Assembly (NCBI GenBank): GCA_963693055.1 | Contig: OY843751.1 | Location: forward strand, 3,296,001 to 3,360,000 | Direction of reading: 5' to 3' | Origin: a bacterium | Lineage (GTDB): Bacteria; Zhuqueibacterota; Zhuqueibacteria; Residuimicrobiales; Krinioviventaceae | Length of the DNA stretch: 64,000 nucleotides | Shown: in pieces, positions 1,987 to 32,647 of the stretch | Layout of the letters: every line of letters starts with the position of its first letter | Numbering within the stretch: the first letter of the stretch is position 1 | Notes under the pieces: model-generated | Database searches by the model: none | What the model saw: only the letters and a program-made list of their open reading frames with translations | What the model was told of the DNA's origin: nothing | Program-made: the position numbers and the translations under genes

Positions 1987-3061
1987 AGCTAACCGCCTCT
2001 TGTGCATAGATTTTAGGTTCTTCTTGTCCTGTTAATACACGTAGCGCCCCCAGAGCCAAAGCCTCCATCTCTTCCTCACCGGGAAATTTTAATACTTGTG
2101 CTATAAAATCAATCCGTTTTTCTATTTTTTCAATAATCTCATTACTAAATGCAATGCCACCGGTAAGGACTATTGCATCCACTTTACCGGCAAGCACAGC
2201 AGCCATTGCAGCAATTTCTTTTGATATTTGATATGTCATTGCTTCAATAGCTACATTGATGTCATTTGCAGACGATGTTTTTAATAATTGTTGAATATTA
2301 TTTGATCCGGTATAGGCAACCAAACCACCTTTGCCGGTCAACATTTTCAAGATCTGCTTTTCCTGAGGTTTACCAGAAAAACAGAATCTCACCAAATCAC
2401 CAGCAGGTATAGTACCAGCTCTTTCAGGGGAAAAAGGGCCATCTCCGTCAAGGGCATTATTAACATCCACCACTCTACCCTGCTTATGTGCGGCTACAGA
2501 AATACCACCGCCAAGATGGGCGATTATGAGATTTAAATCCTCATACTTTTTTTGCAATGATTCCGCTGCTTTTCTTCCAACGGCTTTATGATTTAACGCA
2601 TGAAAAATACTTTTACGTTTAAATTGAGGATGCCCTGATAATCTTGCAACGCTATCAAACTCATCTACAACAACGGGATCAACAATAAAAGCAGGCGTTT
2701 TACAAATACCTGCGAATTTGGCCGCCAGCACACCACCCAGGTTGGACGCATGCTGACCTTGCACCCCTTTGGTTAAATCCTGAATCATCTCGGCATCTAC
2801 CGCATAAGTTCCACTCGGAATAGGATTTAATAACCCGCCTCTTCCAACATAGGCATCCATATCATTACAATCAATACCTTTATTGGTAAATACATTTTGA
2901 ATCAGTTCAAAACGATAATCAAGCTGGTCCATTATCGTACTAAACTGTGCCAGTTCATCAACAGAGTGATGTACTGACTCGGAAAATACCGGTTCGGTAT
3001 TTTTATAAAGCGCTAATTTTGTAGAGGTGGAACCGGGATTGATAACAAAAATATTAGACAT
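1970..3061 (-). CDS. buk: Butyrate kinase
   Basis: Motifs INPGSTSTK, GRGGLL, HASNLG, VDPVVVDE, HALNHKA, HLGGGISV, GPFSPERAG. Confidence 0.95.
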   Translation of the reverse strand: MSNIFVINPGSTSTKLALYKNTEPVFSESVHHSVDELAQFSTIMDQLDYRFELIQNVFTNKGIDCNDMDAYVGRGGLLNPIPSGTYAVDAEMIQDLTKGVQGQHASNLGGVLAAKFAGICKTPAFIVDPVVVDEFDSVARLSGHPQFKRKSIFHALNHKAVGRKAAESLQKKYEDLNLIIAHLGGGISVAAHKQGRVVDVNNALDGDGPFSPERAGTIPAGDLVRFCFSGKPQEKQILKMLTGKGGLVAYTGSNNIQQLLKTSSANDINVAIEAMTYQISKEIAAMAAVLAGKVDAIVLTGGIAFSNEIIEKIEKRIDFIAQVLKFPGEEEMEALALGALRVLTGQEEPKIYAQEAVSYDHNV

Positions 3062-10866: not shown

Positions 10867-12129
10867 TTATGGAAAAATGCCGCGTGCTTCAACTGCTTTG
10901 GCAACCCGCTGCACAGCGATCATCATAGCAGCATTTCTCAAATCTGTTTTTTCCTGTTGCGATAATTTCCAAACAGCATCAAAACTTTGTACCATAACCC
11001 TGCGTAAATTCTGGTTTACTTCATCTTCATCCCAGAAAAAGGATTGGATACTCTGCACCCACTCAAAATAGGATACAACAACACCACCGCTATTAGCTAA
11101 AATATCCGGAACTACATACTTTCCTTTTTCTACAAGATATCTTTCAGCTTCGGGGGTTGTCGGACCGTTAGCGCCTTCAACAATAGCATAGGCCTTGATC
11201 TTTTCACAATTATCAATTGTGATTTGCTTTTCCAACGCCGCAGGTACAATAACATCTACATCAAGTTCAAAAATCTCAGACGGGTCAATTTTACTCACAC
11301 CCGGTGCTGTAAAGCCTTCCAGGTGATGATGGCGATTTTTCTGACAATGTTCAATCATATCAGAAATTGGCAATCCCTCCGGACAATAATATGCACCCGT
11401 TACATCACTAACCGCATGCACTTTACATCCTTCTTTTGCCAACAGGTCTGCACTAACTGAACCTACATTACCAAAACCCTGAATGGCGACACTTGTTTGT
11501 TTAGGATCTTTATCCAGTCGATTCAAGAGTTCAAGAGTATTAAACATAACACCACGACCGGTTGCCTCACGTCTTCCCAATGAGCCTCCCAGTTCAATGG
11601 ATTTGCCTGTCACAATATCAAGAACTGTGGAACCGTGAAACATACTGACAGTATCCATAATATAACCCATTGTTTCGGCATTCGTGCCAACATCGGGAGC
11701 GGGGATATCCTGATGGGGACCAATAATAGGCATAATAGCAACGGTATAACGTCTTGTTAGCCTGCGTAGTTCATCAGGAGATAATTGTGTAGGATCTACC
11801 TGCACACCACCTTTACCACCACCATAAGGTATATTTACCACCGCACATTTCCAGGTCATCCACATTGCCAGCGCTTTCACCTCGTCAAGATTTACACCCT
11901 GATGAAATCGGATACCGCCCTTACAGGGACCACGCGCATGGGAATGTTGAACCCGGTAACCACAAAACACTTCAATCCGGCCGTCATCCATAACTACCGG
12001 AAGAGCGACGGTCAAAGCCCTTTCCGGAAAGCTAAGCACACCTAACGTGCTTGGGCTGAGGTTGAGTTTTGTTGCAGCAGACTCTAACTGCTCAAGAGCC
12101 ATGTCGAACACACTGGAATTTGGCATCAC
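10867..12129 (-). CDS. gdhA: Glutamate dehydrogenase (Glu/Leu/Phe/Val family)
   Basis: [47 protein letters not shown]. Confidence 0.92.
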
Positions 12130-16735: not shown

Positions 16736-17809
16736 TCAATACTCTCTCAACTCTTCCTGACCATTTAACACTCGCAAAACACCCTGCGCCATTGCATCCA
16801 TTTCCAACTCGCCGGGAAAAACAAAGACAGGAGCAATAAACATAATACGTCCGGTAACTTCGGTAATTAATCGATTTGAATTTGCAAGTCCACCAGTCAA
16901 GACAATAGCCTTAACATCACCATTAACAACAGTTGCCATTGCGCCTATTTCTTTGGCAATCTGATAGCACATGGCAAAAAAGACATTCTTTGCCAATTCG
17001 TCACCATCCTGAATGCGTTGCTCTATAACCTGCATATCTTTGGTGCCAAGGTATGCCTTTAGACCACCTTTGCTCATGACCATTTCTTTCATGTCATGAT
17101 TGCCGTATTTGCCTGAGAAACACATATCAATAAAGGGCATAAGTGGTAATGCACCGGTGCGTTCAGGTGAAAAAGGTCCCGCGCTTGAAGCATCGTTCAC
17201 ATCAATCACCCTGCCATTTCGCACAGGAGCAATTGAGATACCTCCACCCAAATGTGCAACAATAAAGTTATTTTTACTGGCATCAATATCCAGCTTTTCA
17301 GCAGCCCAGTATGTAGCTGCACGCAAGTTTAAAGAATGTGACAATGAACGTCTTTCCATTAACGGATGTCCGGAATACCTGGCAACAGGTTCAAACTCAT
17401 CAACGGATACAGGATCAACAGTATACGCAGGACAACTAAATTTTGTTGCAATTTTATCTGCAAGAGCACATCCTAAATTGGATACATGTGCACCCCGGTG
17501 CCCTTCGCGGGCGTCTTTTATCATCTGCTGATCAACTTTATAGGTGCCCCGTTTGAGTGGTTTGAGAATTCCACCACGCCCAACTACAGCATCAAGGGGA
17601 TCCGTTAATTCCTGATCTGCAAGAAAATCTTCAATTGCATTAGTACGATATTCAAACTGGCTCCAAAGAGAATTAAACCTGCCAAGTTCTCGCTCATCAT
17701 GTTTAATGTTCTCTGAAGCTATCACTTTTTTACCTGCATACAATGCAACTTTGGTTGAAGTAGAGCCAGGATTTATTACAAGAATTAAAGCTTTATCATT
17801 TTGGGTCAA
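16736..17809 (-). CDS. buk: Butyrate kinase (second paralogue)
   Basis: INPGSTSTK, GRGG, HVSNLG, VDPVSVDE, HLGGGIS, GPFSPERTG. Confidence 0.93.
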   Translation of the reverse strand: MTQNDKALILVINPGSTSTKVALYAGKKVIASENIKHDERELGRFNSLWSQFEYRTNAIEDFLADQELTDPLDAVVGRGGILKPLKRGTYKVDQQMIKDAREGHRGAHVSNLGCALADKIATKFSCPAYTVDPVSVDEFEPVARYSGHPLMERRSLSHSLNLRAATYWAAEKLDIDASKNNFIVAHLGGGISIAPVRNGRVIDVNDASSAGPFSPERTGALPLMPFIDMCFSGKYGNHDMKEMVMSKGGLKAYLGTKDMQVIEQRIQDGDELAKNVFFAMCYQIAKEIGAMATVVNGDVKAIVLTGGLANSNRLITEVTGRIMFIAPVFVFPGELEMDAMAQGVLRVLNGQEELREY

Positions 17810-17926: not shown

Positions 17927-19666
17927 TTATGCTGCGTTTTCTTTATAGATGCTTTTTTTATCATAATGTGTATGAAGCAGTTCATGTGCTTTGTGACCAT
18001 TAGGTTCACCCAGCCATTCTTCATACAATTTCATAACAGCAGGATTCTCATGAGATTTACGGATCTCCATTTTACGGTCTTGCAGATAAATAGCTTCAGC
18101 GCGTTTCTTGCGGATTTCTTCAGAAGTGGGGATCGGTTGACCACCACCACCAATACAACCACCGGGACAAGCCATAATTTCAATAAAATGATATTCAGCT
18201 TCACCGGCTGCAATTTTGTCTAACAATTTACGTGCATTTGCTAAACCGTTAGAAACAGCAGCTTTAACTTTTAAACCGTTCAGGTCTATTTCTGCTTCTT
18301 TAATACCTTCTAAACCTCGAACATCTTTGATCTCTACATCATCAAGTGTCTTTTCGGTAACAATTTCATAAACGGTACGTAATGCAGCTTCCATTACACC
18401 ACCGGTATTACCAAAAATAACAGCAGCACCTGTAGAGATACCCAATGGATCATCGTACTCTTCTTCATGCAGATCAGGTAAATTGATACCAACCTGTTTC
18501 ATCATTACAGCTGCTTCACGTGTGGTCAATACAGCGTCCACATCCTGAAAACCGCTGTCATTCATTTCCGGACGTCCACATTCATATTTCTTGGCAGTAC
18601 AAGGCATGATGGATACACAATAAATATCTTTAGGATCAATGCCATTCTTTTCAGCATAATATGTTTTTGCCAAAGCGCCAAACATCTGCTGTGGAGATTT
18701 ACATGAAGATACATGCGGCAACAAATCAGGATAAAAATGTTCAATAAAATTTATCCAGCCGGGGCTACATGAAGTTAACAATGGCAAAGTGCCGCCATTC
18801 TTTACACGACCCAACAGCTCTGTACCTTCTTCCATAATGGTTAAATCTGCGGTAAAGTCTGTATCAAAAACTTTATCGAATCCCAACATTCTCAAACCAG
18901 TAACAAACTGATTGGTAACCAGAGAACCGGCAGGCATACCAAACATTTCGCCAATTGACGCGCGAACTGCGGGTGCAGTTTGAACAACAACATGTTTTGT
19001 AGGATCATCCAAAGCTGCCCAAACGCGTGCTGTATGATCATTTTCATACAATGCACCAACAGGACAACGATCGATACATTGACCACAGGAAACACAGGCA
19101 ACATCGCCAATGCCTTTACCAAATGGAGTATCAACCCAAACTTCGTATCCACGGCCTTCAAGACCAATTGCGCTAACACTCTGTACCAGTTCACAAGTCT
19201 GGATACAACGGCGGCACAAGATACATTTGGAAGGATCACGAACGATAGCCGCACTGGAAAGGTCCAGTTCACCCTTACGTTCATGATATTCAAAACGATT
19301 TTCACGCAAACCCAATTGTTCTGCGGCATCCTGCAATTCACAGAAATTATTGCGAACACATTCAGTACATTTCATGGGATGACGAGACAATAACAATTCG
19401 AGTGCCATTTTGCGAGAGTCGCGAACTGATTGGGTGCGTGTTGAAACATTCATCCCCTCCTTACATTGCCATGAGCAAGCAGTGCGTAACAAACGATCAC
19501 CTTCAACCTCTACAACACATAAACGACATGCAGATACCGGCGGTAAATCTGGATGATAGCATAAACGGGGGATTTTGATATTTAATTTTTCTGCTGCTTC
19601 TAGAACAGTCGTACCCTTGGGTACTGTTACTGTTTTACCATCTATTGTTAATGTGATATTTTCCAC
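17927..19666 (-). CDS. hydA: [FeFe]-hydrogenase group A catalytic subunit (HndD/HydA type), copy 1
   Basis: H-cluster motifs TSCSPGW, MPCTAKKYE, EIMACPGGCIGGGGQP; N-terminal 2Fe-2S, His-ligated 4Fe-4S (HPMKCTEC) and 2x4Fe-4S. Confidence 0.96.
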   Translation of the reverse strand: MENITLTIDGKTVTVPKGTTVLEAAEKLNIKIPRLCYHPDLPPVSACRLCVVEVEGDRLLRTACSWQCKEGMNVSTRTQSVRDSRKMALELLLSRHPMKCTECVRNNFCELQDAAEQLGLRENRFEYHERKGELDLSSAAIVRDPSKCILCRRCIQTCELVQSVSAIGLEGRGYEVWVDTPFGKGIGDVACVSCGQCIDRCPVGALYENDHTARVWAALDDPTKHVVVQTAPAVRASIGEMFGMPAGSLVTNQFVTGLRMLGFDKVFDTDFTADLTIMEEGTELLGRVKNGGTLPLLTSCSPGWINFIEHFYPDLLPHVSSCKSPQQMFGALAKTYYAEKNGIDPKDIYCVSIMPCTAKKYECGRPEMNDSGFQDVDAVLTTREAAVMMKQVGINLPDLHEEEYDDPLGISTGAAVIFGNTGGVMEAALRTVYEIVTEKTLDDVEIKDVRGLEGIKEAEIDLNGLKVKAAVSNGLANARKLLDKIAAGEAEYHFIEIMACPGGCIGGGGQPIPTSEEIRKKRAEAIYLQDRKMEIRKSHENPAVMKLYEEWLGEPNGHKAHELLHTHYDKKSIYKENAA

Positions 19667-19718
19667 ATTTAACCTCCATTGTGCGTATTATAACGTTAAA
19701 CTCAACATACATTATTTG

Positions 19719-21308
19719 TTAAGCCACAGCTTCCGGTTGTTTTACCAATTTTTCGAATTCAGGGCGGAAATGTTTCAGCGTTCCCAGAATAGGTACAGGA
19801 GCAGCCTGACCTAATCCACAGAACGCACCCTTCATCATGACTACTGCAAGTTCTTCAATCATATCGATGTCTTTGATCTCGCCTTTACCACTGCTCAATT
19901 TTTCAAGACGCTCCAATAAACGGCCTGTTCCTTCACGGCAAAGTGTACATTTACCACAAGATTCATGATTAAAGAATTCTACAAAATTGGTTACCAGATC
20001 AACAATTTCCTGATCTTCATCAACAACCAGTAAAGCACCTGAACCCAAACCTGAGCCAATTTCGCGCAAGTTTTCAACTGCCAATGGCAGGTCCAGATGT
20101 TCGGAGGTTAAAATACCACCAGTAGTTCCACCCATTTGGGCGAGTTTAAAGCCTTTACCATTGGGAATGCCCTGACCGATATCATAAATAATTTCTCGCA
20201 GGGTAATGCCCATGGGAACTTCAATAAGGCCGGGATTATTAATATTGCCAACCATGGTAAATACCTTAGTGCCCGGGCTTTTTTCGGTGCCCAGTGACTT
20301 GTACCACTCGGCGCCTTTTAAAACAATCTGAGGAATATTAGCAAGTGTTTCCACGTTATTTACGATTGTCGGTTTTCCCCACAGACCTTCGGAAGGTGGA
20401 AACGGTGGTTTATCACGTGGTTCTCCGCGTTTTCCTTCAATGGATTCTATCAATGCGGTCTCCTCACCACAGATATAAGCGCCGGCCCCTTCACGAATTT
20501 CAAGATCAAATGAAAAATCTGTACCAAACAGATTATCACCCAGTAATCCGTTTTCTTTAGCCTGATCGATAGCGCGCTGCATCCGATCGATGGACATGCG
20601 GTATTCACCACGAATATAAACATAACCTTTGGTTGCACCCACTGCAAAACCTGCAAGTGCCATTCCCTCAATAACTGCATGTGGATCGCCTTCAAGGATC
20701 AGACGGTCTTTAAATGTACCCGGCTCACCTTCGTCAGCATTACATACAATGTATTTTTGCTCAGCGGTTTCTTTGGCAGCAAAATCCCATTTCAAGCCAG
20801 TTGGGAAAAATGCACCACCACGTCCCTGCAGGCCGGATTCTTTAACGGTACTGCGTACAGCATCGGGGTCCATTTCGGTTAATGCTTTACCAAATGCTTC
20901 ATATCCGTCATGAGCAATGTATTCATCAATGTTATCAGGATCAATAACACCGGCATTTTTCAATACTACCCGTATTTGTTTTCCAAAACGAGGTGCAGGT
21001 ACACCTGCGGTCTCTGTTTCAGGAATATCAGTATATTGTAAACGATCAACTTTACGACCTTTGATCAGGTGTTCAGAGATGATTTCAGAAACATCTTCAA
21101 CCTTGACACCGGCATAATATACCGCGTCAGGGAAAACAACCATAACAACACCTTTATTATAAATTCCCAAACTACCAGTTTCAACAACACGGACTTCATC
21201 GGCAAGCGCTGCCATTTTCAGTTCGCGCTCCAATGCGTCTTTGACAGAACGGGCGCCCTGGGCAATTGTATGTCCATCCATTGCAATAAGTATGTGAATC
21301 CTATGCAT
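19719..21308 (-). CDS. hydB: NuoF-like flavin subunit (HndC/HydB), short form
   Basis: GRGGAFFPTG, CNADEGEPGTFKDR, GAGAYICGEET, ESCGKCTLCREG...CGLG. No C-terminal ferredoxin domain; N-terminal Trx-like domain has no Cys. Confidence 0.92.
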   Translation of the reverse strand: MHRIHILIAMDGHTIAQGARSVKDALERELKMAALADEVRVVETGSLGIYNKGVVMVVFPDAVYYAGVKVEDVSEIISEHLIKGRKVDRLQYTDIPETETAGVPAPRFGKQIRVVLKNAGVIDPDNIDEYIAHDGYEAFGKALTEMDPDAVRSTVKESGLQGRGGAFFPTGLKWDFAAKETAEQKYIVCNADEGEPGTFKDRLILEGDPHAVIEGMALAGFAVGATKGYVYIRGEYRMSIDRMQRAIDQAKENGLLGDNLFGTDFSFDLEIREGAGAYICGEETALIESIEGKRGEPRDKPPFPPSEGLWGKPTIVNNVETLANIPQIVLKGAEWYKSLGTEKSPGTKVFTMVGNINNPGLIEVPMGITLREIIYDIGQGIPNGKGFKLAQMGGTTGGILTSEHLDLPLAVENLREIGSGLGSGALLVVDEDQEIVDLVTNFVEFFNHESCGKCTLCREGTGRLLERLEKLSSGKGEIKDIDMIEELAVVMMKGAFCGLGQAAPVPILGTLKHFRPEFEKLVKQPEAVA

Positions 21309-21783
21309 TTGCCTGTCCTTTCATTTTATAGTCTTTTAATATTGCCACTGCTTTTTCCGGAGTAAGATTACCATAAACCTCATCATTGATCATCATAACC
21401 GGTGCAACCGCACAAAGTCCCAAACAGCTTGTAAATTCCAGAGTAAAAAGATTATCGGGAGTGGTTTCATTCATATCAAGACCCAGATATTCTTTAATTT
21501 TTTCCAGAACATCTTTGGAACCTTTAACATGGCAGGGTGCATTGTTGCAGCAACGTACAATATATTTACCTTTATCTTCTGTATTGAACAGACTATAAAA
21601 AGTAGCTACACCATAAATATCTGAAAGTGGTAATTTGGTAGCTTTTGCAACTTGAGTAAGTACGGGTTCAGAGAGGGAACCATACTCTTTTTGAACATCT
21701 TTTAAAATATAAATAAGTGGTGTTTTTGTGTCAGCATAATTTTTGACAATAACATCCACCTTGGTTAAATCTTGCATTCTCAA
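21301..21783 (-). CDS. hydC: NuoE-like 2Fe-2S subunit (HndA/HydC), copy 1
   Basis: YGVATFYSLF, CNNAPCHVKG, CLGLCAVAP. ATG 21777 fits the GGAGG RBS better. Confidence 0.92.
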   Translation of the reverse strand: MRMQDLTKVDVIVKNYADTKTPLIYILKDVQKEYGSLSEPVLTQVAKATKLPLSDIYGVATFYSLFNTEDKGKYIVRCCNNAPCHVKGSKDVLEKIKEYLGLDMNETTPDNLFTLEFTSCLGLCAVAPVMMINDEVYGNLTPEKAVAILKDYKMKGQANA

Positions 21784-21820
21784 CCTCCATAGATTGATTT
21801 TCCAGCGTTGCGGGTATCGT

Positions 21821-22183
21821 CTAGTTTAAATTAAATACATATTCCGAAACTACAGTATTGTTCACAATATGTTCTGCAATAATTTTACGAGCTATTTCAG
21901 CATTTACTTTACCATATGTAACGGTAGGTTTGTCTGCCTGAGCAATCTGCAGCATGGGTTCATTATCACAGTAACCCAAACAACCTGTTTGTGTAACAAC
22001 AGCGTCTTTGATACCACGCTTTTCAATTTCATCTAAAATCGCTGACATTGTGTCACGTGAACCTGCGGCGATTCCGCATGTTCCCATGGAAACAATAATG
22101 CGATATTTTGCATCGCTTTCCCGTGCAGCCATCTGAGATTTTGCCTTCTCCTTGATAGCACGGAGATCTGCTAATGTTTTCAC
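21821..22183 (-). CDS. HndB-like thioredoxin-fold 2Fe-2S subunit
   Basis: MGTCGIAAG...TGCLGYCDNEP; GTG start after GGAGG. Confidence 0.88.
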   Translation of the reverse strand: MKTLADLRAIKEKAKSQMAARESDAKYRIIVSMGTCGIAAGSRDTMSAILDEIEKRGIKDAVVTQTGCLGYCDNEPMLQIAQADKPTVTYGKVNAEIARKIIAEHIVNNTVVSEYVFNLN

Positions 22184-22421: not shown

Positions 22422-22985
22422 TTAATCTAATAAAACTTTACTTTTCACTTGAATACGTTTCAATTCAGATTTGATATGTTTTTTTGCCGGAACAACCATA
22501 TCAAAAAAATCACAATCCTGTTCTGCCATTCTTGCCAAAAGCCAGTATGAATCAAAACATAAAAGTCCCTTGTCCGTACGATGAAGGTAGCAAAAATGCA
22601 CATCAACCGCACCCATTACCAGGTTTACAACTGTACCGGCAATATCTCCCAAAGGTGCCAGGTTTAAGCTATTGAGTTTGAAATCAGCGGTAACAGTTGT
22701 GCCTTTACCCAATTTCGATTTCAAAACCATGCGCCCACCGGCTTCATTTGCTGCCTGGTTCCAGAATGGTAATCCCATTCCTACTGAACGTGTGGTTCTT
22801 GAGGTAACAAAGGGATCAATAACTCTGGCCTGAGTAACGTCATCCATACCTCTGCCATTATCACGTATTGTAACCGCGAGCCTGTTTTGTTTTTGAGATT
22901 CATCAATAAACAAAATCACGCGTGAAGCCTCTGCTTCAATGGAATTTGTAACAATATCCAAAATATTTAATGATAATTCACGCAT
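22422..22985 (-). CDS. Stand-alone HATPase_c (kinase-like) protein of [FeFe]-hydrogenase clusters
   Basis: MRELSLNILDIVTNSIEA, IRDNGRGM, DPFVTSRTTRSVGMGLP, GKGTTV. Confidence 0.85.
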   Translation of the reverse strand: MRELSLNILDIVTNSIEAEASRVILFIDESQKQNRLAVTIRDNGRGMDDVTQARVIDPFVTSRTTRSVGMGLPFWNQAANEAGGRMVLKSKLGKGTTVTADFKLNSLNLAPLGDIAGTVVNLVMGAVDVHFCYLHRTDKGLLCFDSYWLLARMAEQDCDFFDMVVPAKKHIKSELKRIQVKSKVLLD

Positions 22986-23747
22986 CTAGCTCATCTCCTC
23001 CGGGAGTTCAAGAGAGGTTTTACGTCCATCTTGCTTTTTGAGTGCTTTACGGATCTCTTCAAAATCCGGTTTTTCGATATAAAACCAGGTATATTTTGAA
23101 CCCAACATACTTATATCGTGGGCATCAGAAGCTGTAATGATACTTTTGGTAGTATTGAGTAAAAAACGATGATTTTTTGAAACATTCTCAAATGGTTGTG
23201 CAATTTCAAGCGCATCGAAAGGCAAGTTGTCGGGAATGAATCCCAAAGAGCGTAACAAACTGTATGATTTCCTATCAATATGCGCAGGATAAATGATACC
23301 ATTCAAATCTACAACCGTACTGGCAACTTTGTAAATATTCAGGCTTACCGGCAGAGCAAACATACGTTTACTTTCCTCAATAATATTTTCCTGAAAATCG
23401 CAAACATATTGTGGACCAAACATGGATGCATCATATTCACCAGGCATCAAATGTTCATATATATAGTTTTGGAAATGCCCGGCAGCATCCAGGTCTGGAA
23501 ATAAACATATAGAGTGCGCATCTTCACGTGTATAGACTTCCATACCAGGAATGACAAAGAGTTTTTTATTTTCAGCGGCCTTAACAACAGCCTGTGTATT
23601 TTCTGCAGAGTTGTGATCCGTAATTGCCAGGATATCCAGTTCATGTTGCAGGGCTGTTTTAACAATATCAACTGGCCCCATTGTCAATTCAGCACAAGGC
23701 GAAAGGACCGTATGAACATGCAAATCCGCTTTGTACCATTGCAGCAT
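22986..23747 (-). CDS. PHP-domain phosphoesterase
   Basis: DLHVHTVLSPC, AITDHNS, PGMEV, PAHIDR, SDAH. Confidence 0.9.
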   Translation of the reverse strand: MLQWYKADLHVHTVLSPCAELTMGPVDIVKTALQHELDILAITDHNSAENTQAVVKAAENKKLFVIPGMEVYTREDAHSICLFPDLDAAGHFQNYIYEHLMPGEYDASMFGPQYVCDFQENIIEESKRMFALPVSLNIYKVASTVVDLNGIIYPAHIDRKSYSLLRSLGFIPDNLPFDALEIAQPFENVSKNHRFLLNTTKSIITASDAHDISMLGSKYTWFYIEKPDFEEIRKALKKQDGRKTSLELPEEMS

Positions 23748-23751
23748 TCAC

Positions 23752-24093
23752 CTATCTCCCCCGTAAACCAAAATCGTAAAGTTGGCCTGCGACATCAAAG
23801 GCAGACAGGGTTGTGCTGAAAACAGGTATATTTTTTTCATTGGCTTTTTCAAGGGCTGAATCGTCAGGAACCAATCCTTCGGGAAAGATAACTCCGGCAA
23901 GAGACTTGAAAAATACAATGGCAATAACGTTTTCATGTGTTTGATTGGTGATCCACAATGACCCTTTTAATGCATTGGCCATTGCATCACTAAGGATATC
24001 AGACAAGTAACCAAAATCTACTTCTTTGTTCAGATTTTGTTCACCGCTGAGAACTTTTAAATCTAACTTTTTTACAATCTCTTGCAACACCAT
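23752..24093 (-). CDS. DRTGG/HPr-kinase-N-like domain protein
   Basis: GYLSDILSDAM...LWITNQTHENVIA...ANEKNIPV; this family is typically found next to the PHP gene in hydrogenase loci. Confidence 0.78.
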   Translation of the reverse strand: MVLQEIVKKLDLKVLSGEQNLNKEVDFGYLSDILSDAMANALKGSLWITNQTHENVIAIVFFKSLAGVIFPEGLVPDDSALEKANEKNIPVFSTTLSAFDVAGQLYDFGLRGR

Positions 24094-24135: not shown

Positions 24136-25614
24136 TTATTCCATTTTTGAAGCCGGCAGGAACACTGAAAAAGTTGTTCCTTTTTCATACTCGCTTTCAA
24201 TTTCGATCTTGCCGGCATATGCATCTACAATTTTTTTAACAATTGTTAGACCCAATCCGGTACCGGTTATTTCTCGGGTGTGTTCATTCTTGGCCCTGAA
24301 AAAATCTTCAAACAAGCGTTCTTTATCTTCAGGACGCATCCCTATTCCGGTATCGGTAACATCAATTCGAATATAATGACCGTTACGACTGCCGTTTATG
24401 GTTATGGAACCGTTATCACGATTGTATTGAATTGCATTGGATATGACTTGAGTAAATAAACGTTGAAGATCTATCTGGTCAGCATCTACAAACAAATGTT
24501 CAGTAACGCTAATACGAACTTCTAGATTGTGTTCCTTGATGTCATTTTTCATGAAATTGAGTCGTTCTGACAATAGCTCTGAAATATCCTGTCTGTTTAT
24601 TTCGCGTCTTACCTTGCCAGCTTCCAGACGGGTGACATTTAGCAAATCATTGATCAGATTGACAAGTGACTTTGTACGATCTAATGATCTCTTTAAATAA
24701 TTCTCATACAAGTCCGGATCATCGCCCAGAGTCTTGTCTACAACCAGCTCAAGATAGCCTTGTACAGCAGACAATGGTGATTTTAATTCATGTGCAGCCA
24801 TATCTACAAATTGAGAGCGCATGATATCAATTTTTTTCAATTCTGAAATATCACGCAAGACAGACACAACGCCCAACAATTCACCCTTGTCTATGATAGG
24901 TGTTGTATTGGCCATTATCACCAGTTTTGCCGGCGGATGTATAATGATCTCTTGCTGTATCGCTTTAACCTGTTCTTTTTTGCTAAAAATCTCTCGCAGC
25001 TGTTTGTTCAACTCGTCTGGCAGAAACTGCCAAACTTTGTCACCAATTTCAATCTTGCTTTCAACGTTTAATAATTTTATAAACCCGGGATTAAAAAGTA
25101 CAACCTGCCCTTCCTGGTTAATAACCATAATACCATCATCCAAAGAATTGATAATGGTGCGCATGCGCGATTGCTCATGAGCAACCTGCAGCAATCTTCT
25201 TTCCTGCTCTTCACGTAATCTTCTGGCTTCTAAAATATACCAGCGACGTTCAAGAGCACGGTTTACCAGGATTTGCAGTTCATCTGGTTCAAAAGGTTTG
25301 GGTATATACTGGTAGGCACCCAGTCGTGTGGTTTCCACAGCAGTTTCAATAGATGCATATGCAGTAACAATCACACAAATGGCTTCGGGATATACCAGCT
25401 TGATCTCACGTAATACCTGCGTGCCCTCCACATCCGGCATACGTAAATCAATAAAGTACAGATCATACTCGTTGGCAATACCCTTTTCAATACCTTCTGT
25501 ACCGTTTGAGGCCGTATCTACATTATGACCGTACAACTCGAGGATGCGTCTAATGCCTTCACGCATCCCCAATTCATCATCTACGACCAGTATTTTACCT
25601 TGTTCAATCCTCAA
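24136..25614 (-). CDS. Cytoplasmic REC-PAS-histidine kinase
   Basis: ILVVDDE...IDLRMP...KP receiver, PAS (LDDGIMVIN), AHELKSPL H-box, DTGIG, GTGLGL. Confidence 0.9.
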   Translation of the reverse strand: MRIEQGKILVVDDELGMREGIRRILELYGHNVDTASNGTEGIEKGIANEYDLYFIDLRMPDVEGTQVLREIKLVYPEAICVIVTAYASIETAVETTRLGAYQYIPKPFEPDELQILVNRALERRWYILEARRLREEQERRLLQVAHEQSRMRTIINSLDDGIMVINQEGQVVLFNPGFIKLLNVESKIEIGDKVWQFLPDELNKQLREIFSKKEQVKAIQQEIIIHPPAKLVIMANTTPIIDKGELLGVVSVLRDISELKKIDIMRSQFVDMAAHELKSPLSAVQGYLELVVDKTLGDDPDLYENYLKRSLDRTKSLVNLINDLLNVTRLEAGKVRREINRQDISELLSERLNFMKNDIKEHNLEVRISVTEHLFVDADQIDLQRLFTQVISNAIQYNRDNGSITINGSRNGHYIRIDVTDTGIGMRPEDKERLFEDFFRAKNEHTREITGTGLGLTIVKKIVDAYAGKIEIESEYEKGTTFSVFLPASKME

Positions 25615-26008
25615 GTTCTTTAAATATCTTTTCGCTTAAATATTGTACCAAATCTCTGGGAGAAATGGGTTTTTCCAAATAATCATCTGCCTTGATCCAG
25701 TTTTTTTCTTCATCTGTATCGGTAGAAAAACGGATACCGGTATCGTGACCGGCTGAAGTCATGATGATTACACGAACGTTTTCAGTATTGGGCTGTTGTT
25801 TGATTCTGTGGCAAAGTACAAAACCAGAATCAAAATGCTCCATTGCAAGGTCAACAACAACAACAGGCGGATTAAATGCTTTGAATTTTTCCAAACCTTC
25901 CACACTGTCATATGCAGTTTCTACAGTATAGCCTTCTTTTTCTAAAACGGGTTTATAAATATTGATCAAATCTGTATCGTCATCAACCATTAAAATCTTT
26001 TTATCCAT
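25604..26008 (-). CDS. Single-domain response regulator
   Basis: ILMVDDD, VVVDLAME, LEKP. Confidence 0.88.
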   Translation of the reverse strand: MDKKILMVDDDTDLINIYKPVLEKEGYTVETAYDSVEGLEKFKAFNPPVVVVDLAMEHFDSGFVLCHRIKQQPNTENVRVIIMTSAGHDTGIRFSTDTDEEKNWIKADDYLEKPISPRDLVQYLSEKIFKELED

Positions 26009-26022
26009 GCGAACATTTTCCT

Positions 26023-26415
26023 TTAATTCTTGGTTTTCAACATTTCAATTACTTTATCATACAACTGTGTATGTGTAACGGGTTTTTCCATAAAGTCATC
26101 TACCGGGTTCCAATTATCATCCGGGCCAATGGTGAGATTAAAATTGTGTTCCTGATTGACACTGGTCATCATCAGGATCAATGTATCGTTAATAGCATCA
26201 TCTTTACGAATCTCACGGGCAACTTCAAAGCCTTCACCCACTTCGGTCATCATGACATCGAGTATTACCAAATCCGGTTTTTCGGATCTAACCAGTTTCA
26301 GTCCATCTGAACCGTTATAGGCCTTGCATACATGAAAACCCTTTGATGTAAAAAAGGCACGGTTCATTTCGACTAGATCAACATCATCATCAATTATTAA
26401 TAATTTATAACTCAT
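26023..26415 (-). CDS. Single-domain response regulator
   Basis: LLIIDDD, ILDVMM, MEKP. Confidence 0.88.
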   Translation of the reverse strand: MSYKLLIIDDDVDLVEMNRAFFTSKGFHVCKAYNGSDGLKLVRSEKPDLVILDVMMTEVGEGFEVAREIRKDDAINDTLILMMTSVNQEHNFNLTIGPDDNWNPVDDFMEKPVTHTQLYDKVIEMLKTKN

Positions 26416-26429
26416 CTTTCCTCTAGAGT

Positions 26430-28442
26430 TTATTGACCTGTTACCGCTTGAACAGTTTCAAGTGCCATTGGTAAATCAATTAAAAAATTGGTTCCATAAC
26501 CGGGTGTGCTCTGCACTTTAATATTACCCTTGTGCATTTTCAAAATTCCATAAGCTATAGGAAGACCTAAACCGGTTCCTTTGCCAATTTGCTTGGTCGT
26601 AAAAAAGGGTGTAAACAGTTTTGCAACATTTTCCTGAGCTATTCCAACTCCAGTGTCTTTAAATTCAAGGCATACACGACTTGCTTCATAATCTGTATTT
26701 GCCGAGATTGTTAACACACCACCATCGGGCATAGCTTCTGCGGCGTTTATTGCAAGATTTAAAAAGACCTGGTAAATCTGATCTCCATCAATATCAACCA
26801 GTGGCAGATTCGGATCAAAATTCACTTTAATCTCTATATTTTGAAATAATTGTTGTTTCTCTATTACAGAAATCATCTTGCCAATTAATTCGGAAAGGTT
26901 ATGCTTTTTCAGCTTTAACTTTCCTTGTCTGGAAAAGTTTAACAATCCGGAAACAATTTTTTGACAGCGTTTTGTCTCTTCCATAATAAACCGCATGTCT
27001 TTGGCCTGAGGATCAGTATCTTCCATTTTTTGCAAAACCAGATGCGCGTAAAGTAAAATGGATCCCAAGGGATTGTTTACTTCGTGAGCCACACCTGCTG
27101 CAAGCTGACCAATGGATGCCAACTTTTCATGCTGGATGAGTTGTTCCTGCGTTTCAGCGAGTTGTTCCAATGAATTTTTCAACTCTTGCTGCATACGCTG
27201 CTGTTTTTCAATAATAAACGGCAAACACATGGCATCTTCTGCAATCCCTTGATAAACAGCAATGGCGTATTCTCTACAACTATCATAACCACAGGATCTG
27301 CAATTGAGCTCGTCAGACGGATCAAATTTTTCAATCTTTTCCAGAATTGAGCGAATCTCTTTGTCCGAGGGTAATGGCATTTTGCATGGTCGTGCTTTAA
27401 ACGTTCTAAACACATCCACATCACGACATTGCTCAAGAGTACTTTTCCATGACATATAATTGGTAGATTGCCGGTGTGATGCTGTATACTGAACAATTTT
27501 TTGTTTTCGTGTAAAATAATTGACCGACTTGTTCATAAAGGGTCCATTTATACACCCTTCACAAAACAACACATCAACCAGACTGGCTTTGATTTCTTGG
27601 TTTTTAAGACAATCAAACAGTTTGAGAATTTGTTGCTTACCTTCGGTCAAAATGACTTCCTTGTTCATAATATCAAGCGGTAAACCAGCGCTGCGCAAAA
27701 AACCTCCGGAAATGGGATACAAACTGCCCAAATACGGATGCGGCGGATCGAAATCCTTCCAAGTACAATTCTCAGGATCAACACCCAGTTTTCTCCAAAG
27801 TTCTTCCAGTTCCTGAAAGGTCAAAACTTCGTCTACTGCATCTTTAACTTCGGCATCTCGTATTTCTGTTTTTTTCGCAGTACAGGGGCCAATAAATACC
27901 GTTTTTACATTGGCACCATATATTTTTTTTACAACCCTGCCCATAGCAATCATGGGTGATACTACCGGGGCAAGGTCGTTAATTAATTCGGGTACATACA
28001 TTTGAATATATGAAAAAATTGCAGGACAAGAGCTTGTTATAAAGGGCCTTTCTTTCTGGTTATTTTTTTCATTAACCAGGTTTAAATAAGCGCGATTTAT
28101 AAGATCAGCGCCAAAGGCCACTTCAACAACATGAGAAAAACCACAAGCGCGTAACGCACCTACCAGCTTGCCGGTTTCCATTTTAGGGTATGCCGCAGGA
28201 AACGATGGCGCCAGCATGGCTACTGTATTCTCTTGCTTGAGTAATTCCAAAGCATTGTCAACTCCATCCAGAACTGCTTTTGCCTTTTGTGTACAAACAG
28301 TAACACAATGACCACAGCTAAGACAGCGTTCTACAATGACTTTGGCTTGCCCGTTTTCAACCTTGATTGCTTTTGCCGGGCATTCCCGAATACAGGAATA
28401 ACAGCGCTTGCATTTTTCTTCTATTGTCCAAACAACTGGCAT
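26430..28442 (-). CDS. Putative sensory [FeFe]-hydrogenase (group C-like) fused to a histidine kinase
   Basis: 2x4Fe-4S, variant H-cluster motifs ITSSCP, GPCTAKKTE, DVLFCEGCING, an extra FeS motif (NCRSCGYDSC...MCLP), coiled coil, GVAHEVNNPL, HATPase (PFFTTK, GTGLGL). Confidence 0.88.
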   Translation of the reverse strand: MPVVWTIEEKCKRCYSCIRECPAKAIKVENGQAKVIVERCLSCGHCVTVCTQKAKAVLDGVDNALELLKQENTVAMLAPSFPAAYPKMETGKLVGALRACGFSHVVEVAFGADLINRAYLNLVNEKNNQKERPFITSSCPAIFSYIQMYVPELINDLAPVVSPMIAMGRVVKKIYGANVKTVFIGPCTAKKTEIRDAEVKDAVDEVLTFQELEELWRKLGVDPENCTWKDFDPPHPYLGSLYPISGGFLRSAGLPLDIMNKEVILTEGKQQILKLFDCLKNQEIKASLVDVLFCEGCINGPFMNKSVNYFTRKQKIVQYTASHRQSTNYMSWKSTLEQCRDVDVFRTFKARPCKMPLPSDKEIRSILEKIEKFDPSDELNCRSCGYDSCREYAIAVYQGIAEDAMCLPFIIEKQQRMQQELKNSLEQLAETQEQLIQHEKLASIGQLAAGVAHEVNNPLGSILLYAHLVLQKMEDTDPQAKDMRFIMEETKRCQKIVSGLLNFSRQGKLKLKKHNLSELIGKMISVIEKQQLFQNIEIKVNFDPNLPLVDIDGDQIYQVFLNLAINAAEAMPDGGVLTISANTDYEASRVCLEFKDTGVGIAQENVAKLFTPFFTTKQIGKGTGLGLPIAYGILKMHKGNIKVQSTPGYGTNFLIDLPMALETVQAVTGQ

Positions 28443-28443
28443 A

Positions 28444-30156
28444 TTATTCTACATCTCTTCTCACATAGTGTGTATGCAAGAGCTCATGGGCCTTATGACT
28501 GTTGGGCTCGCCAAGGAACTCTTTATACAATTTCTGAACTGATTCATTCTGATGTGAACAACGCATGGGCAGTTCTTTATCGATCTTGTAAATAGCCTGC
28601 ATACGCTTTTCAGTTTTTTCAGGATCAGAAGGCAATGGCTGACCACCACCATTAATACAACCACCGGGGCATGCCATAACTTCAATAAAGTGATATGGAG
28701 AAGTTCCTTCCTGCATCTGGTCCAGGAAATGGTTTATGTTTTTCAATCCGTTAATAGCGGCAACTTTAAGTTCAATATCATTAATCGTTACAACAGCTTC
28801 TTTAACACCACTCAAGCCACGGATTGGACGAAAATCGATATCATCCATTTCTTTACCCGTAAGTGTAAAATATGCTGTACGCAAAGCGGCTTCCATAACA
28901 CCACCGGCACTACCAAAAATAACCGCAGCACCCGTTGATTCACCCAATGGATCATCAAAGTGTTCTTCTGCCAGGCGGGTAAAATCAATACCTGCGTTTT
29001 TGATCATTCTTGCAAGTTCGCGTGTGGTAACTACTGCATCAACATCCGGGTATTTATCACCCAGTTCAGGACGTTGAGCTTCAAATTTCTTTGCAGTACA
29101 TGGCATTACAGATACTACAAATATATCTTTGGGATCAATACCCATCTTTTGCGCATAAAAAGATTTTACAAGCGCTCCCTGCATTTCATGTGGTGATTTA
29201 CAGGTTGAGAGATTGCCCAACAGATCGGGATAAAAATGTTCAATATATTTAATCCAACCCGGACTACAAGAAGTAATCATGGGAACAGTACCATTATTGG
29301 TTAAACGACCCAACAATTCAGTTGCTTCTTCCATAATGGTAAGATCAGCACTAAAGTTGGTGTCAAAAACAGTGTCAAAGCCCATTGCGCGAAGTGCTGA
29401 AACCATTTGACCTGTAACAATAGTGCCAACCGGCATCCCAAATTCTTCACCCAGTGCAACACGTACAGCCGGTGCAACTTGAACAACAACATGTTTTTCT
29501 TTATTATTAATGGCATCCCAAACAACTTTTTCCTGGCTCTTTTCTTTCAAAGCACCAACTGGACAGTTAACAATACACTGACCACAGTAAACACAAGGAA
29601 CTGTGTTCAAACTGTTATCAAATGCAGGGGTAACATAAGTCTGGAAACCACGGTTTGCAAAATCAATTGCGCCTACATTTTGTACTTCATGACAAACACG
29701 GATACAGCGACCGCAGAGAATACATTTATCGGGATCACGTTCCATTGATGGACTTGCAACATCCTGTTTGTTTGAACGTTTTTCACCTTCATAGCGCAGG
29801 CTGCGAACACCATATTCCGCAGCAAGGGTCTGTAATTCACAATTTCCATTGCGAACACATTGCAAACAATCAGCCGGGTGGTTGGCAATCAACAACTCGA
29901 TGATGGTTTTTCTTGCACGTCTTACCTTGGGTGAATTGGTTTGCACCTTCATTCCGTCAGCTACCGGAAATGCACAGGAAGGTACAAGATTGCGCTGTCC
30001 TTCTACTTCAACAACACATATACGGCATGAACCGGTTGGGCTAAATCCTTTCAGGTAACACAATGTTGGTATTTTAATACCTTCACGGTCAGCTACGGTA
30101 AGGATCGTTTCACCCGGATTGGCCCAGCACTCTTTATCATTTATTATAATTCGCAT
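28444..30156 (-). CDS. hydA: [FeFe]-hydrogenase group A catalytic subunit, copy 2
   Basis: TSCSPGW, MPCTAKKFE, EVMACPGGCINGGGQP and a full accessory cluster set. Confidence 0.96.
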   Translation of the reverse strand: MRIIINDKECWANPGETILTVADREGIKIPTLCYLKGFSPTGSCRICVVEVEGQRNLVPSCAFPVADGMKVQTNSPKVRRARKTIIELLIANHPADCLQCVRNGNCELQTLAAEYGVRSLRYEGEKRSNKQDVASPSMERDPDKCILCGRCIRVCHEVQNVGAIDFANRGFQTYVTPAFDNSLNTVPCVYCGQCIVNCPVGALKEKSQEKVVWDAINNKEKHVVVQVAPAVRVALGEEFGMPVGTIVTGQMVSALRAMGFDTVFDTNFSADLTIMEEATELLGRLTNNGTVPMITSCSPGWIKYIEHFYPDLLGNLSTCKSPHEMQGALVKSFYAQKMGIDPKDIFVVSVMPCTAKKFEAQRPELGDKYPDVDAVVTTRELARMIKNAGIDFTRLAEEHFDDPLGESTGAAVIFGSAGGVMEAALRTAYFTLTGKEMDDIDFRPIRGLSGVKEAVVTINDIELKVAAINGLKNINHFLDQMQEGTSPYHFIEVMACPGGCINGGGQPLPSDPEKTEKRMQAIYKIDKELPMRCSHQNESVQKLYKEFLGEPNSHKAHELLHTHYVRRDVE

Positions 30157-30171
30157 ATCTTCCTCAGTTTA

Positions 30172-32181
30172 TTATTCCACATAAATGGCATCAAATTTAC
30201 AATTGGCTCTACACTGATCACAGCGTATACATTTATCATCAATAATGTAATGTGCTTTTTTACGTTCGCCCAGAATAGCATTTTCAGGACATTTTCTAGC
30301 ACAAACTGTACAACCGGTACATTTATCTGTATCAATCTTATATGTCAACAGGTCTCTACAAACACCAGCGCGGCATTTACGATCGTACAAGTGTTCTTCG
30401 TATTCTTCACGGAAATAACGTATTGTGCTCAATACGGGGTTCGCGGCAGTTTGTCCCAATCCACACAACGAAGTATTAATGATCACTTCTGACAGACGTT
30501 CAAGGTATACCATACCCTGGAAACGCAGCAGTGAATCTTCGGCAGATTTTTCAGCACGATGGCTTGATGACAAACGTTCCAGAATTTCCAACAACCGCTT
30601 TGTACCCTCACGACAAGGAATACATTTACCACATGATTCAGACTGGATAAAGGTCATAAAGTATTTGGCCAAATCAACCATACAGGTTGTTTCATCCATT
30701 ACCACCAGACCACCGGAACCCATCATGGCGCCAATGCTTTTGAGTGATTCATAATCTACAGGAGTATCGATAACTGAATCCGGTAATGCACCACCAGAAG
30801 GACCACCAATCTGTACAGCCTTGAATTCTTTACCATCAGGAATACCACCACCAATATCAAAAACGATTTCACGCAGTGTAACACCCATGGGAACTTCAAC
30901 CAGACCTACATTTTTCACTTTACCGGAAAGAGCAAAGATCTTGGTACCTTTAGAATTTTCTGTACCAATCTTTGAATACCAGTCTGCACCATTACGCAAG
31001 AGTACCGGTACATTTGCAAAAGTTTCAACGTTATTAATAATGGTTGGTTTACCAAACAATCCTGCATCTGAAGGATATGGTGGTTTAGGACGCGGCATTC
31101 CGCGTTTACCTTCAATTGAATTCAACAATGCGGTTTCTTCACCACAAACAAATGCGCCCGCACCTTTTTTAATTTTCAGGTTAAAGCTAAATCCTGTTCC
31201 CAGAATATTCTCACCCAACAGGCCATAGGCTTTAGCGTCTTTGATCGTTTTTTCAAGTCTAGCAATTGCAAGTGGATATTCAGCACGGCAGTAAACATAA
31301 CCTTCATCTGCACCAATAGCAAAAGCGGCAATAGCCATACCTTCTACCATCAAATGAGGATCACCTTCCATTACCGCACGATCCATAAATGCACCAGGAT
31401 CGCCTTCATCTGCATTACAAACAACATATTTTTTATCGCCTTTTGACTGGGCAGCCAGTTTCCACTTTAAACCTGTTGGAAAACCACCGCCGCCACGACC
31501 ACGAAGTCCGCCGTCTAAAACTTCTTTAACCACTTTTTCGGAATCCATTTGGGTCAAAGCTTTGGTCAAAGCCTGGTAACCACCATTTGAAATATATTGA
31601 TCAATACTTTCCGGATCAATTACACCACAATTGGCTAAAACTACTTTTTTCTGTTTCTTAAAGAATGGAATATCTTCCATTTTATCAACACTTGACCAAT
31701 CACCTGCATGACCATTTTTATCATATACACCCAGTGTTTTTCCTACAATCACTTGTTTATTAATAATGGTCTGTTCCACAATTTCAGGAACATCCTCAAC
31801 TGTAACTTCACAATAACTGATTCTCGGATAATTGGGTAATTTAATATCAACAATAACTTCACGTGCGCAATATCCAACACAACCAGTAGAGATCAGCTTT
31901 GCATTAATATTTTTTTCATTCAATAATGTTTTAAAAGCATCATATATTTTTTGTGCACCATTTGCTAAACCACAGGTACCCATACCCAGCAGGATAACAG
32001 GTTCCTCGTGATTTTCTAAAAGAATTTCATCTTTTAAACTTTTAACTGCCTGCAATTCAGCATCCGAATGGCCATTACTATTGCCATTGGTGCTCAGGCA
32101 TTCTATTAATGATTTCACCGGAAAGTCCTGATCTTTCCATAAATTGGTGAAAAGGTTTTTATATGTATTCATATCAGCCAC
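30172..32181 (-). CDS. hydB: NuoF-like flavin subunit (HydB), full-length bifurcating type
   Basis: N-terminal GMGTCG...GCVGYC domain, DEGDPGAFMDR, GGPSGG, EYEEH...C...C, C-terminal CTGCTVC and CIRCDQC. Probable GTG start 32181 after GAGG (track start 32217). Confidence 0.93.
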   Translation of the reverse strand: MADMNTYKNLFTNLWKDQDFPVKSLIECLSTNGNSNGHSDAELQAVKSLKDEILLENHEEPVILLGMGTCGLANGAQKIYDAFKTLLNEKNINAKLISTGCVGYCAREVIVDIKLPNYPRISYCEVTVEDVPEIVEQTIINKQVIVGKTLGVYDKNGHAGDWSSVDKMEDIPFFKKQKKVVLANCGVIDPESIDQYISNGGYQALTKALTQMDSEKVVKEVLDGGLRGRGGGGFPTGLKWKLAAQSKGDKKYVVCNADEGDPGAFMDRAVMEGDPHLMVEGMAIAAFAIGADEGYVYCRAEYPLAIARLEKTIKDAKAYGLLGENILGTGFSFNLKIKKGAGAFVCGEETALLNSIEGKRGMPRPKPPYPSDAGLFGKPTIINNVETFANVPVLLRNGADWYSKIGTENSKGTKIFALSGKVKNVGLVEVPMGVTLREIVFDIGGGIPDGKEFKAVQIGGPSGGALPDSVIDTPVDYESLKSIGAMMGSGGLVVMDETTCMVDLAKYFMTFIQSESCGKCIPCREGTKRLLEILERLSSSHRAEKSAEDSLLRFQGMVYLERLSEVIINTSLCGLGQTAANPVLSTIRYFREEYEEHLYDRKCRAGVCRDLLTYKIDTDKCTGCTVCARKCPENAILGERKKAHYIIDDKCIRCDQCRANCKFDAIYVE

Positions 32182-32194
32182 AATATCCTCTTTT

Positions 32195-32647
32195 TTATTT
32201 TTGCCGGTATTCTGCAATTAATTTTTGTATTTTTTTAACGGTCAAATGACCATAATATTCATCATTGATTGATATTACCGGGGCTATACTGCATGCGCCA
32301 ATACAAGCAACGGTTTCGATTGAAAATTGTAAATCTTTGGTTGTATCACCAGCTGAAATTTCAAGTTCATTTTCTAATGTTTGTAAAATATCCAAAGAAC
32401 CTTTCACATGACATGCTGTACCACGACAAACGCGAATAATATATTTGCCCAAAGGTTTCAGGCGAAATTGATTATAAAATGTAGCCACACCATAAATCCG
32501 GCTGACAGGCAGCTTGGTATGAGTTGCTACTTTATTCATCTCTTCTTCAGACAAGTATCCCTGAACTTCCTGAATATCCTGTAAAATAGGAATCAGGACT
32601 GATGGATCACCCGGAGGATACTTTTCAAAAATCTGTTGCGTCTCCAT
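32195..32647 (-). CDS. hydC: NuoE-like 2Fe-2S subunit (HydC), copy 2
   Basis: YGVATFYNQF, CRGTACHVKG, CIGACSIAP. Confidence 0.93.
   Translation of the reverse strand: METQQIFEKYPPGDPSVLIPILQDIQEVQGYLSEEEMNKVATHTKLPVSRIYGVATFYNQFRLKPLGKYIIRVCRGTACHVKGSLDILQTLENELEISAGDTTKDLQFSIETVACIGACSIAPVISINDEYYGHLTVKKIQKLIAEYRQK

Follow-up and report, generated by a model that had tools for sequence, protein, structure and literature searches.

We analysed a 64,000-nucleotide stretch of a bacterial genome (assembly GCA_963693055.1, contig OY843751.1, positions 3,296,001 to 3,360,000; hereafter the window, from whose first letter all coordinates are counted), focusing on a minus-strand [FeFe]-hydrogenase gene cluster with a short flavin subunit, HydB (19719-21308, 529 amino acids). 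Together with the NuoE-like subunit HydC and the catalytic subunit HydA, this protein probably forms a non-bifurcating hydrogenase, predicted from its sequence to couple reduced nicotinamide adenine dinucleotide (NADH) to H2, in either direction, without ferredoxin. Judged by its conservation, HydB is an intact, lineage-conserved short form, neither degenerate nor mis-assembled. The window also holds a second, canonical bifurcating-type HydABC cluster 10 kb upstream of the first (28444-32647, minus). Its flavin subunit, HydB2 (30172-32217, minus, 681 amino acids), carries the AFM motif, the Phe, the GGPSGG motif, the zinc-hinge motif and the 2x[4Fe-4S] tail of bifurcating enzymes.

On the basis of the open reading frame (ORF), Pfam and the PDB alignment, HydB consists of a cluster-less thioredoxin-like N-domain (about residues 1-92), a linker and a NuoF-like core with the flavin mononucleotide (FMN)/NADH site. 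The only Pfam domains found were Complex1_51K, SLBB and NADH_4Fe-4S, with no match to 2Fe-2S_thioredx or Fer4. The sole iron-sulfur (Fe-S) ligands left are those of the B1 [4Fe-4S] cluster in the core: C451, C454, C457 and C497. In the phmmer search against the PDB, residues 2-524 aligned to bifurcating HydB chains, the top ones being A. mobile 7t2r_B (E=8e-192) and A. woodii 7q4v_B (E=2e-188). The N-terminal cluster cysteines of these two chains face A9, T14, S46 and Y50 of HydB, both in the PDB alignment and in an alignment of 122 sequences. At the other end, HydB terminates about where the reference chains start their C-terminal part of about 70 residues, with the zinc hinge and the 2x[4Fe-4S] domain. 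The protein stops 10 residues past alignment position 520, with no cysteine in that stretch, at a TAA codon (19719-19721). The hinge zinc site (three Cys and one His) is not present in HydB: E434 occupies the position of the third ligand, and the H..C..C tail is absent. A cysteine at position 510 was considered as a relic zinc ligand and rejected, as HydB2 has no cysteine there and the true third ligand is at 434.

The NADH/FMN site differs as well. HydB has T198 and K200 in DEGEPGTFKDR, Y278 in GAGAYICGEE and GGTTGG in the SLBB region, where HydB2 has DEGDPGAFMDR, GAGAF and GGPSGG; the PDB HydB chains, like HydB2, have GAGAF. A preliminary description of this locus, made from the DNA letters and their translations, had already reported the retained N-domain with all four cluster cysteines replaced, the lack of the zinc site and of the 2x[4Fe-4S] domain, and the replacement of DEGDPGAFMDR and GGPSGG by DEGEPGTFKDR and GGTTGG. 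The alignments bear it out on all of these points.

The AlphaFold2 model of HydB, built on 70 sequences, had a mean predicted local distance difference test (pLDDT) value of 86.3. Its N-domain showed a beta-alpha-beta-beta-beta-alpha fold with block pLDDT values of 82-96, and we are confident from this model that the N-domain retains the thioredoxin-like fold despite the loss of the cysteines. Foldseek matched the model to HydB, NfnB, StnB and FdsB chains. In the loops that hold the ligands in other proteins (10-20 and 46-52), new residues are near-invariant among about 80 homologues: M10, D11, H13, T14, Q17, R20, S46 and Y50. The same cluster-less N-domain is reported for R. capsulatus FdsB (PMC7171172). 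The FdsB proteins (R. capsulatus 6tg9_B and C. necator 6vw7) have a ferredoxin-like N-domain of about 100 amino acids unable to bind [2Fe-2S], a NuoF core with FMN and one [4Fe-4S] cluster, and no ferredoxin domain. They match HydB in phmmer (E=2e-118 over residues 6-522) and in Foldseek, with a sequence identity of about 37-39%, whereas their partner is a molybdenum formate dehydrogenase and HydB adjoins HydA, not FdsA. By analogy with FdsB, the cluster-less N-domain of HydB would likely have a structural or docking role.

In 2020, Losey et al. (PMC7311640) proposed residues by which beta subunits of the non-bifurcating NADH-dependent kind can be distinguished from bifurcating betas. These residues are Thr/Ser at position 232 of TmHydB and Lys/Ser/Ala at 234, Tyr for Phe near FMN, and no GGPSG, to which the authors add fewer Fe-S domains than in bifurcating betas. 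The AFM motif, Phe-281 and GGPSG are restated as residues of bifurcating enzymes in a later structural paper (PMC12018979). HydB has the non-bifurcating state at all four positions (T198, K200, Y278 and GGTTGG), and also fewer Fe-S domains. Furthermore, it has none of the features of bifurcating HydB/BfuB proteins, namely the B3/B4 domain, the hinge zinc, the N-terminal [2Fe-2S] cluster and AFM/F/GGPSG. This agrees with the earlier suggestion that such features mark non-bifurcating NADH-dependent enzymes like those of S. wolfei and S. aciditrophicus. The B3/B4 domain is reported as absent from non-bifurcating enzymes (PMC9499530), and a T. kivui mutant in the N-terminal cluster is reported to assemble and keep its dye activity, and to bifurcate about tenfold less (PMC10021017). 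Within a set of 155 NuoF-like sequences, A-M, F and GGPSGG co-occurred in 25, and 22 of these had tails of at least 72 amino acids with at least 10 cysteines; no ferredoxin-type tail was found among the T-K/Y sequences examined in this set.

In the enzyme proposed here, electrons would pass from NADH to FMN, then to the B1 [4Fe-4S] cluster, the iron-sulfur chain of HydA and the H-cluster, with the [2Fe-2S] cluster of HydC as the sole remaining side cluster. There would be no low-potential branch, because the ferredoxin-docking domain is absent, and for that reason the release of H2 from NADH would require a low H2 pressure, as it does in syntrophs. Coherently, the S. wolfei and S. aciditrophicus enzymes are reported to form H2 from NADH solely when the H2 pressure is very low (PMC7311640).

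The short form is widely conserved. We compared HydB with its best 120 database proteins, the closest of which are labelled candidate division KSB1 by their sources. The N-domain was Cys-less in 86/120 homologues (three of them fragments), with nearly always A/S-T-S-Y at the ligand positions and 65-99% identity to HydB; the full-length ones measured 528-555 amino acids, a length class seen in about 80 database clusters. The other 34/120, mostly labelled Firmicutes/Bacillota and 57-61% identical to HydB, retained the four cysteines and had no ferredoxin domain. The T, K and Y residues were present in 120/120 homologues and GGPSGG in none. In a sample of 151 genomes of the phylum, 36 of them from the order of the window, a short HydB at 75% identity or more was found in 36/36 genomes of the order, and a genome of the same genus holds a 99% identical copy. 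At least 18 of these 36 genomes also carry, on the same contig and 10-12 kb away, a bifurcating-type HydB of 664-689 amino acids. The gene order HATPase, HndB-like, HydC, HydB, HydA was kept in 19/19 loci of relatives, within the extent of each locus.

Because the same form occurs in all 36 sampled genomes of the order, mis-assembly of a full-length hydB, which the preliminary description had named as a refuting condition, is excluded; this comparison also takes the place of the check for a premature stop near 19719 that it had suggested. The mean pairwise identity in the Cys-less clade was 0.713 for the N-domain vs 0.783 for the core, and in the four-Cys clade 0.611 vs 0.732. As the N-domain of the Cys-less clade is, relative to the core, as conserved as that of its Cys-bearing sister group, the sequences indicate that it is maintained under constraint and is not drifting. 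The hybrid or degenerate architecture first put forward for the enzyme thus gives way to a conserved family.

The sequences form a graded series. C434 and the His-x-Cys-x-Cys tail were found in HydB2, in 34/34 four-Cys short forms and in 43/82 Cys-less forms; C434 was also absent in 37/39 of the tail-less Cys-less forms. We built trees on 397 core columns, with FastTree supports and with the Shimodaira-Hasegawa-like approximate likelihood ratio test (SH-aLRT) from a fast IQ-TREE search. The Cys-less clade was supported at 1.0 (FastTree, 39 sequences) and 98.2 (SH-aLRT), and its tail-less members fell in at least two sub-clades. The four-Cys short forms were its neighbours, placed as its sister clade (0.888) in one tree and as a basal grade (27.1) in the other. 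The bifurcating-type sequences formed a separate clade (n=16, aLRT 99.9), with HydB outside it, and the grouping of HydB with forms of about 400 amino acids from Syntrophomonadaceae and Gelria received a weak support of 0.377 (FastTree). The order of loss was likely ferredoxin domain first, then N-terminal cysteines, then zinc hinge. Three loci (L008:6785-8470, L011:6806-8482 and L117) encode a HydB that has every bifurcating signature (four N-terminal Cys, A-M, F, GGPSGG and the zinc-hinge tail) and no 2x[4Fe-4S] domain; from its sequence, this state is an intermediate in the opposite direction from the short HydB family.

Several points weigh against a non-bifurcating hydrogenase. The maturases HydE, HydF and HydG were not found in the closed genome, so that whether and how the H-cluster is built here is in doubt. 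The signature residues are only correlative. The NfnB of T. sibiricus is reported to have zinc at the N-terminal cluster site and still to bifurcate (PMC12018979), hence the loss of that cluster alone is not diagnostic. The supports of the deep nodes were low (0.14-0.5 in FastTree, 27.1 in SH-aLRT), and common ancestry with the S. wolfei-type subunits of about 400 amino acids is therefore not established. Lastly, at six loci from other phyla the short and the bifurcating-type pairs share one operon and one HydA, which suggests that the short HydB/HydC module may not always act alone.

In the closed genome (6,535,007 bp), the NCBIfam models for HydG and HydE gave no match (the positive controls worked), the HydF model gave only below-cut-off matches to GTPase domains, and the HydF tetramer domain was not found. 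The tblastn search of the genome with HydE, HydF and HydG from two relatives of the same order, proteins whose identities were confirmed, returned only weak GTPase-domain similarity. In the phylum sample, a catalytic-type HydA was present in 59/151 genomes and HydG in 10/151, with both in 9. These results would fit the explanation that the HydABC-like complexes are not working hydrogenases here, being instead iron-sulfur flavoprotein NADH oxidoreductases with another partner, or that they depend on a new cofactor route. We regard this explanation as unlikely, since HydA (TSCSPGW, MPCTAKKYE and EIMACPGGCIGGGGQP) and HydA2 of the second cluster both have intact P1, P2 and P3 motifs for the H-cluster, and since the HydA fragments of relatives keep P1 in 17/18 cases and P2 in 16/18, the misses being the two shortest fragments. 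In addition, active [FeFe]-hydrogenases are reported from maturase-less archaea and protists (PMC11216029), and the maturase genes could be on a plasmid absent from the assembly. HydA also scored 898.8 bits on NCBIfam NF040763 (cut-off 765), and its best PDB match was A. woodii HydA1, which shares TSCSPGW. Seven Fe_hyd_lg_C matches were found in the genome, two complete HydABC clusters among them.

In a family of the same class, in which the ligand positions of the short HydB are occupied by P-T-T-H, hydG directly adjoins the short-HydB hydrogenase cluster (G042:C24:111965-117820). Because of this adjacency, maturases are linked to the short-HydB enzyme type in some relatives. We advance tentatively, and as less likely than not, the idea that the lineage of the window keeps a bifurcating-type and a stripped HydABC without HydE, HydF and HydG, through a maturase-independent route to the H-cluster in bacteria, as proposed for archaea. 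In a narrow literature search, we found no bacterial report of active enzymes without maturases, and the accessible portions of the KSB1 literature make no mention of the short-HydB enzyme or of maturases. If true, the two enzymes would show, as a natural before-and-after series, what bifurcation requires, and the missing maturases, if confirmed, would extend the question of alternative H-cluster assembly to bacteria.

The six loci from other phyla come from the contig scan that also provided the outgroups; its listed matches are mostly complex I NuoF genes, with no close relatives among them. Among the matches listed, these loci (L007, L008, L009, L010, L011 and L013, from six phyla) each have a bifurcating-type HydB and HydC, then a short Cys-less HydB and HydC, then one HydA or HydA-like gene. 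These operons thus hold two different diaphorase heads per catalytic subunit. Such single-HydA operons are what one would expect if the short HydB/HydC were an alternative diaphorase head that enters mixed complexes and draws on the same catalytic subunits as the bifurcating pair. For the window, this is rather improbable, as every pair comes with a HydA of its own, here and in at least 18 relatives, and about 10-12 kb lie between the two clusters.

The protein encoded immediately before HydC, the HndB/HydD-like thioredoxin-like protein (21821-22183, minus, 120 amino acids, GTG start), bears on a further alternative. As a correction, it carries three cysteines (C36, C68 and C72) and no full four-cysteine motif; the three are invariant in the window and in 19/19 relatives. 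S. ovata StnB (8oh5_B), reported to carry a [2Fe-2S] cluster (PMC10482914), has this three-cysteine motif in its N-domain. For this reason, a [2Fe-2S] cluster on the HndB-like protein is possible by analogy. The motif variant (G-T-C-G ... G-C-x-G-x-C) is also seen in the N-domain of HydB2, and a fourth ligand is not evident in either protein.

The invariant cysteines, the StnB precedent and the position of the gene, always immediately before hydC-hydB in the order of the window, would fit a complex that still bifurcates, with the cluster of the HndB-like protein replacing the N-terminal cluster of HydB and ferredoxin docking elsewhere, for example on HydC or on a distal HydA cluster. We consider this very unlikely. 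HydB has neither the B3/B4 docking domain nor the zinc hinge, and the AFM, F and GGPSG conserved in bifurcating enzymes (PMC12018979) are all replaced. The DRTGG-PHP-HATPase-HydD cassette also precedes bifurcating-type HydB proteins with intact clusters (L053, L010 and others). Among the matches listed, the HndB-like protein lacks all three cysteines in 5/6 other-phylum loci with a Cys-less short HydB (L008-L011 and L013), and these Cys-less proteins keep the other invariant residues. Moreover, the A. mobile holoenzyme is reported not to include the hisK and hydD products of its operon (PMC9304861). From the company of the cassette with intact-cluster HydB, the loss of cysteines in 5/6 loci and the A. 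mobile precedent, the HndB-like protein is read as an accessory or regulatory one rather than as the source of the lost cluster, contrary to the proposal in the preliminary description that it may supply the missing 2Fe-2S.

The last alternative, that the gene is a full-length hydB cut short or wrongly assembled, or else a pseudogene in decay, has the shorter length and nothing else in its favour, and we hold it to be practically negligible given the open frame, the roughly 80 database clusters of the same length class, the 99% identical copy in the same genus, the constraint on the N-domain, the correlation of C434 loss with tail loss, and the hydB-hydA spacer (19667-19718, minus). This spacer was rightly described as too small for the missing domain: its 52 bp contain a GGAGG ribosome-binding site before the GTG start of hydA and no remnant of a ferredoxin domain.

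A non-bifurcating HydABC type is already known and, to that extent, the find is fairly ordinary. The S. wolfei and S. aciditrophicus enzymes are like that of the window in the T/K, Y and non-GGPSG residues, in the lack of a C-terminal 2x[4Fe-4S] domain, and in their HydA, NuoE-like and NuoF-like partners. The predicted non-bifurcating trimeric betas in Table S1 of Losey et al. measure 402-434 amino acids, and in S. aciditrophicus HydB only residues 177-585 are covered by the alignment to the S. wolfei beta (PMC7311640). From this size and from the restriction of the alignment to the C-terminal portion, the S. wolfei-type betas have no N-domain. Unlike them, HydB of the window, known here from sequence alone, retains a cluster-less N-domain and is accompanied by a HydD-like gene; unlike S. 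aciditrophicus HydB, which is fused to a NuoE-like part, it is separate from HydC.

A closer counterpart is the Ca. Cloacimonas acidaminovorans beta YP_001741249 (520 amino acids, with T, K, Y and GGAAG), the sole predicted non-bifurcating 'tetrameric' case in Table S2 of Losey et al. (PMC7311640). It shares the length class and signatures of HydB at about 49% identity, and is known as a table entry, its N-domain and zinc site not being discussed in the parts of the paper that were available. A Cloacimonetes homologue of 521 amino acids (L010) has a Cys-less N-domain too, but its operon is shared with a bifurcating-type HydB. The Hydrogenedentota sub-type II BfuB (Zheng and Huang 2024, PMC11406978) is described as lacking B3, B4 and B5; the authors judged it non-bifurcating and found it alongside bifurcating sub-types within single genomes. 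We compared it with HydB by description only, the state of its N-terminal cysteines not being given in the accessible text.

The bifurcating HydABC/Bfu enzymes (T. maritima, A. woodii, T. kivui and the NiFe-HydABCSL of A. mobile) provide the best sequence and fold matches (7t2r_B and 7q4v_B) and have the same HydA type and accessory cassette as the locus of the window, whereas HydB lacks their N-terminal cluster, zinc hinge, B3/B4 domain and AFM/F/GGPSG. The layout had also been likened to the Hnd enzyme of D. fructosovorans. The likeness holds loosely, as a four-gene set with an HndB-like member, but the gene order differs, being hndA-B-C-D in Hnd and B-like, A-like, C-like, D-like in the window. 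HndC, moreover, has both N- and C-terminal clusters and its counterpart in the window has neither set.

In the literature searched, no paper was found in which a hydrogenase HydB is described with a Cys-less N-domain, and the explicit account of this conserved domain and of the stepwise losses seems new. In genome surveys, electron bifurcation is usually assigned to all multimeric group A3 [FeFe]-hydrogenases. A large fraction of these genes, in several phyla, appears to encode a flavoprotein unable to dock ferredoxin, and such a ferredoxin-free clade would change the estimates of energy yield and H2 threshold for the host organisms. The graded series, from a HydB with all parts to one without the ferredoxin domain, then without the N-terminal cluster and then without the zinc hinge, would be a variant set for testing what bifurcation needs and a route to the role of the conserved cluster-less N-domain.

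The genes of the short-HydB locus are all on the minus strand and follow one another, in the direction of transcription, as DRTGG, PHP, HATPase, HndB-like, HydC, HydB, HydA and butyrate kinase. The accessory cassette upstream comprises the DRTGG gene (23752-24093, minus), the PHP gene (22986-23747, minus) and the gene for a histidine-kinase-like ATPase (22422-22985, minus). HydC (21301-21783, minus, 160 amino acids) is a NuoE-like [2Fe-2S] subunit that keeps all four cysteines; its true start is likely the ATG at 21777, which would give a protein of 158 amino acids, as in 19 relatives. HydA (17927-19666, minus) is a catalytic [FeFe]-hydrogenase subunit of 579 amino acids.

In the second cluster, HydB2 is flanked by HydC2 (32195-32647, minus) and HydA2 (28444-30156, minus). 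A signalling block (24136-28442) separates the two HydABC clusters and is made of a fusion of a sensory-type [FeFe]-hydrogenase with HisKA and HATPase domains (26430-28442, minus), two receiver proteins (26023-26415 and 25604-26008, minus) and a further kinase ORF of 492 amino acids (24136-25614, minus). Speculatively, the sensory hydrogenase-kinase could let the cell choose between the bifurcating and the plain enzyme according to the H2 level.

The butyrate kinase gene (16736-17809) lies 117 bp beyond the end of hydA, also on the minus strand. It is one of two genes for butyrate/acetate-type kinases in the window, the other lying within 1072-3061 (minus); one of the two adjoins a phosphate acetyl/butyryl transferase. 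A glutamate dehydrogenase gene is found at 10867-12129. The kinases, the phosphotransacylase and the glutamate dehydrogenase form a fermentative context, in keeping with a need for NADH disposal.

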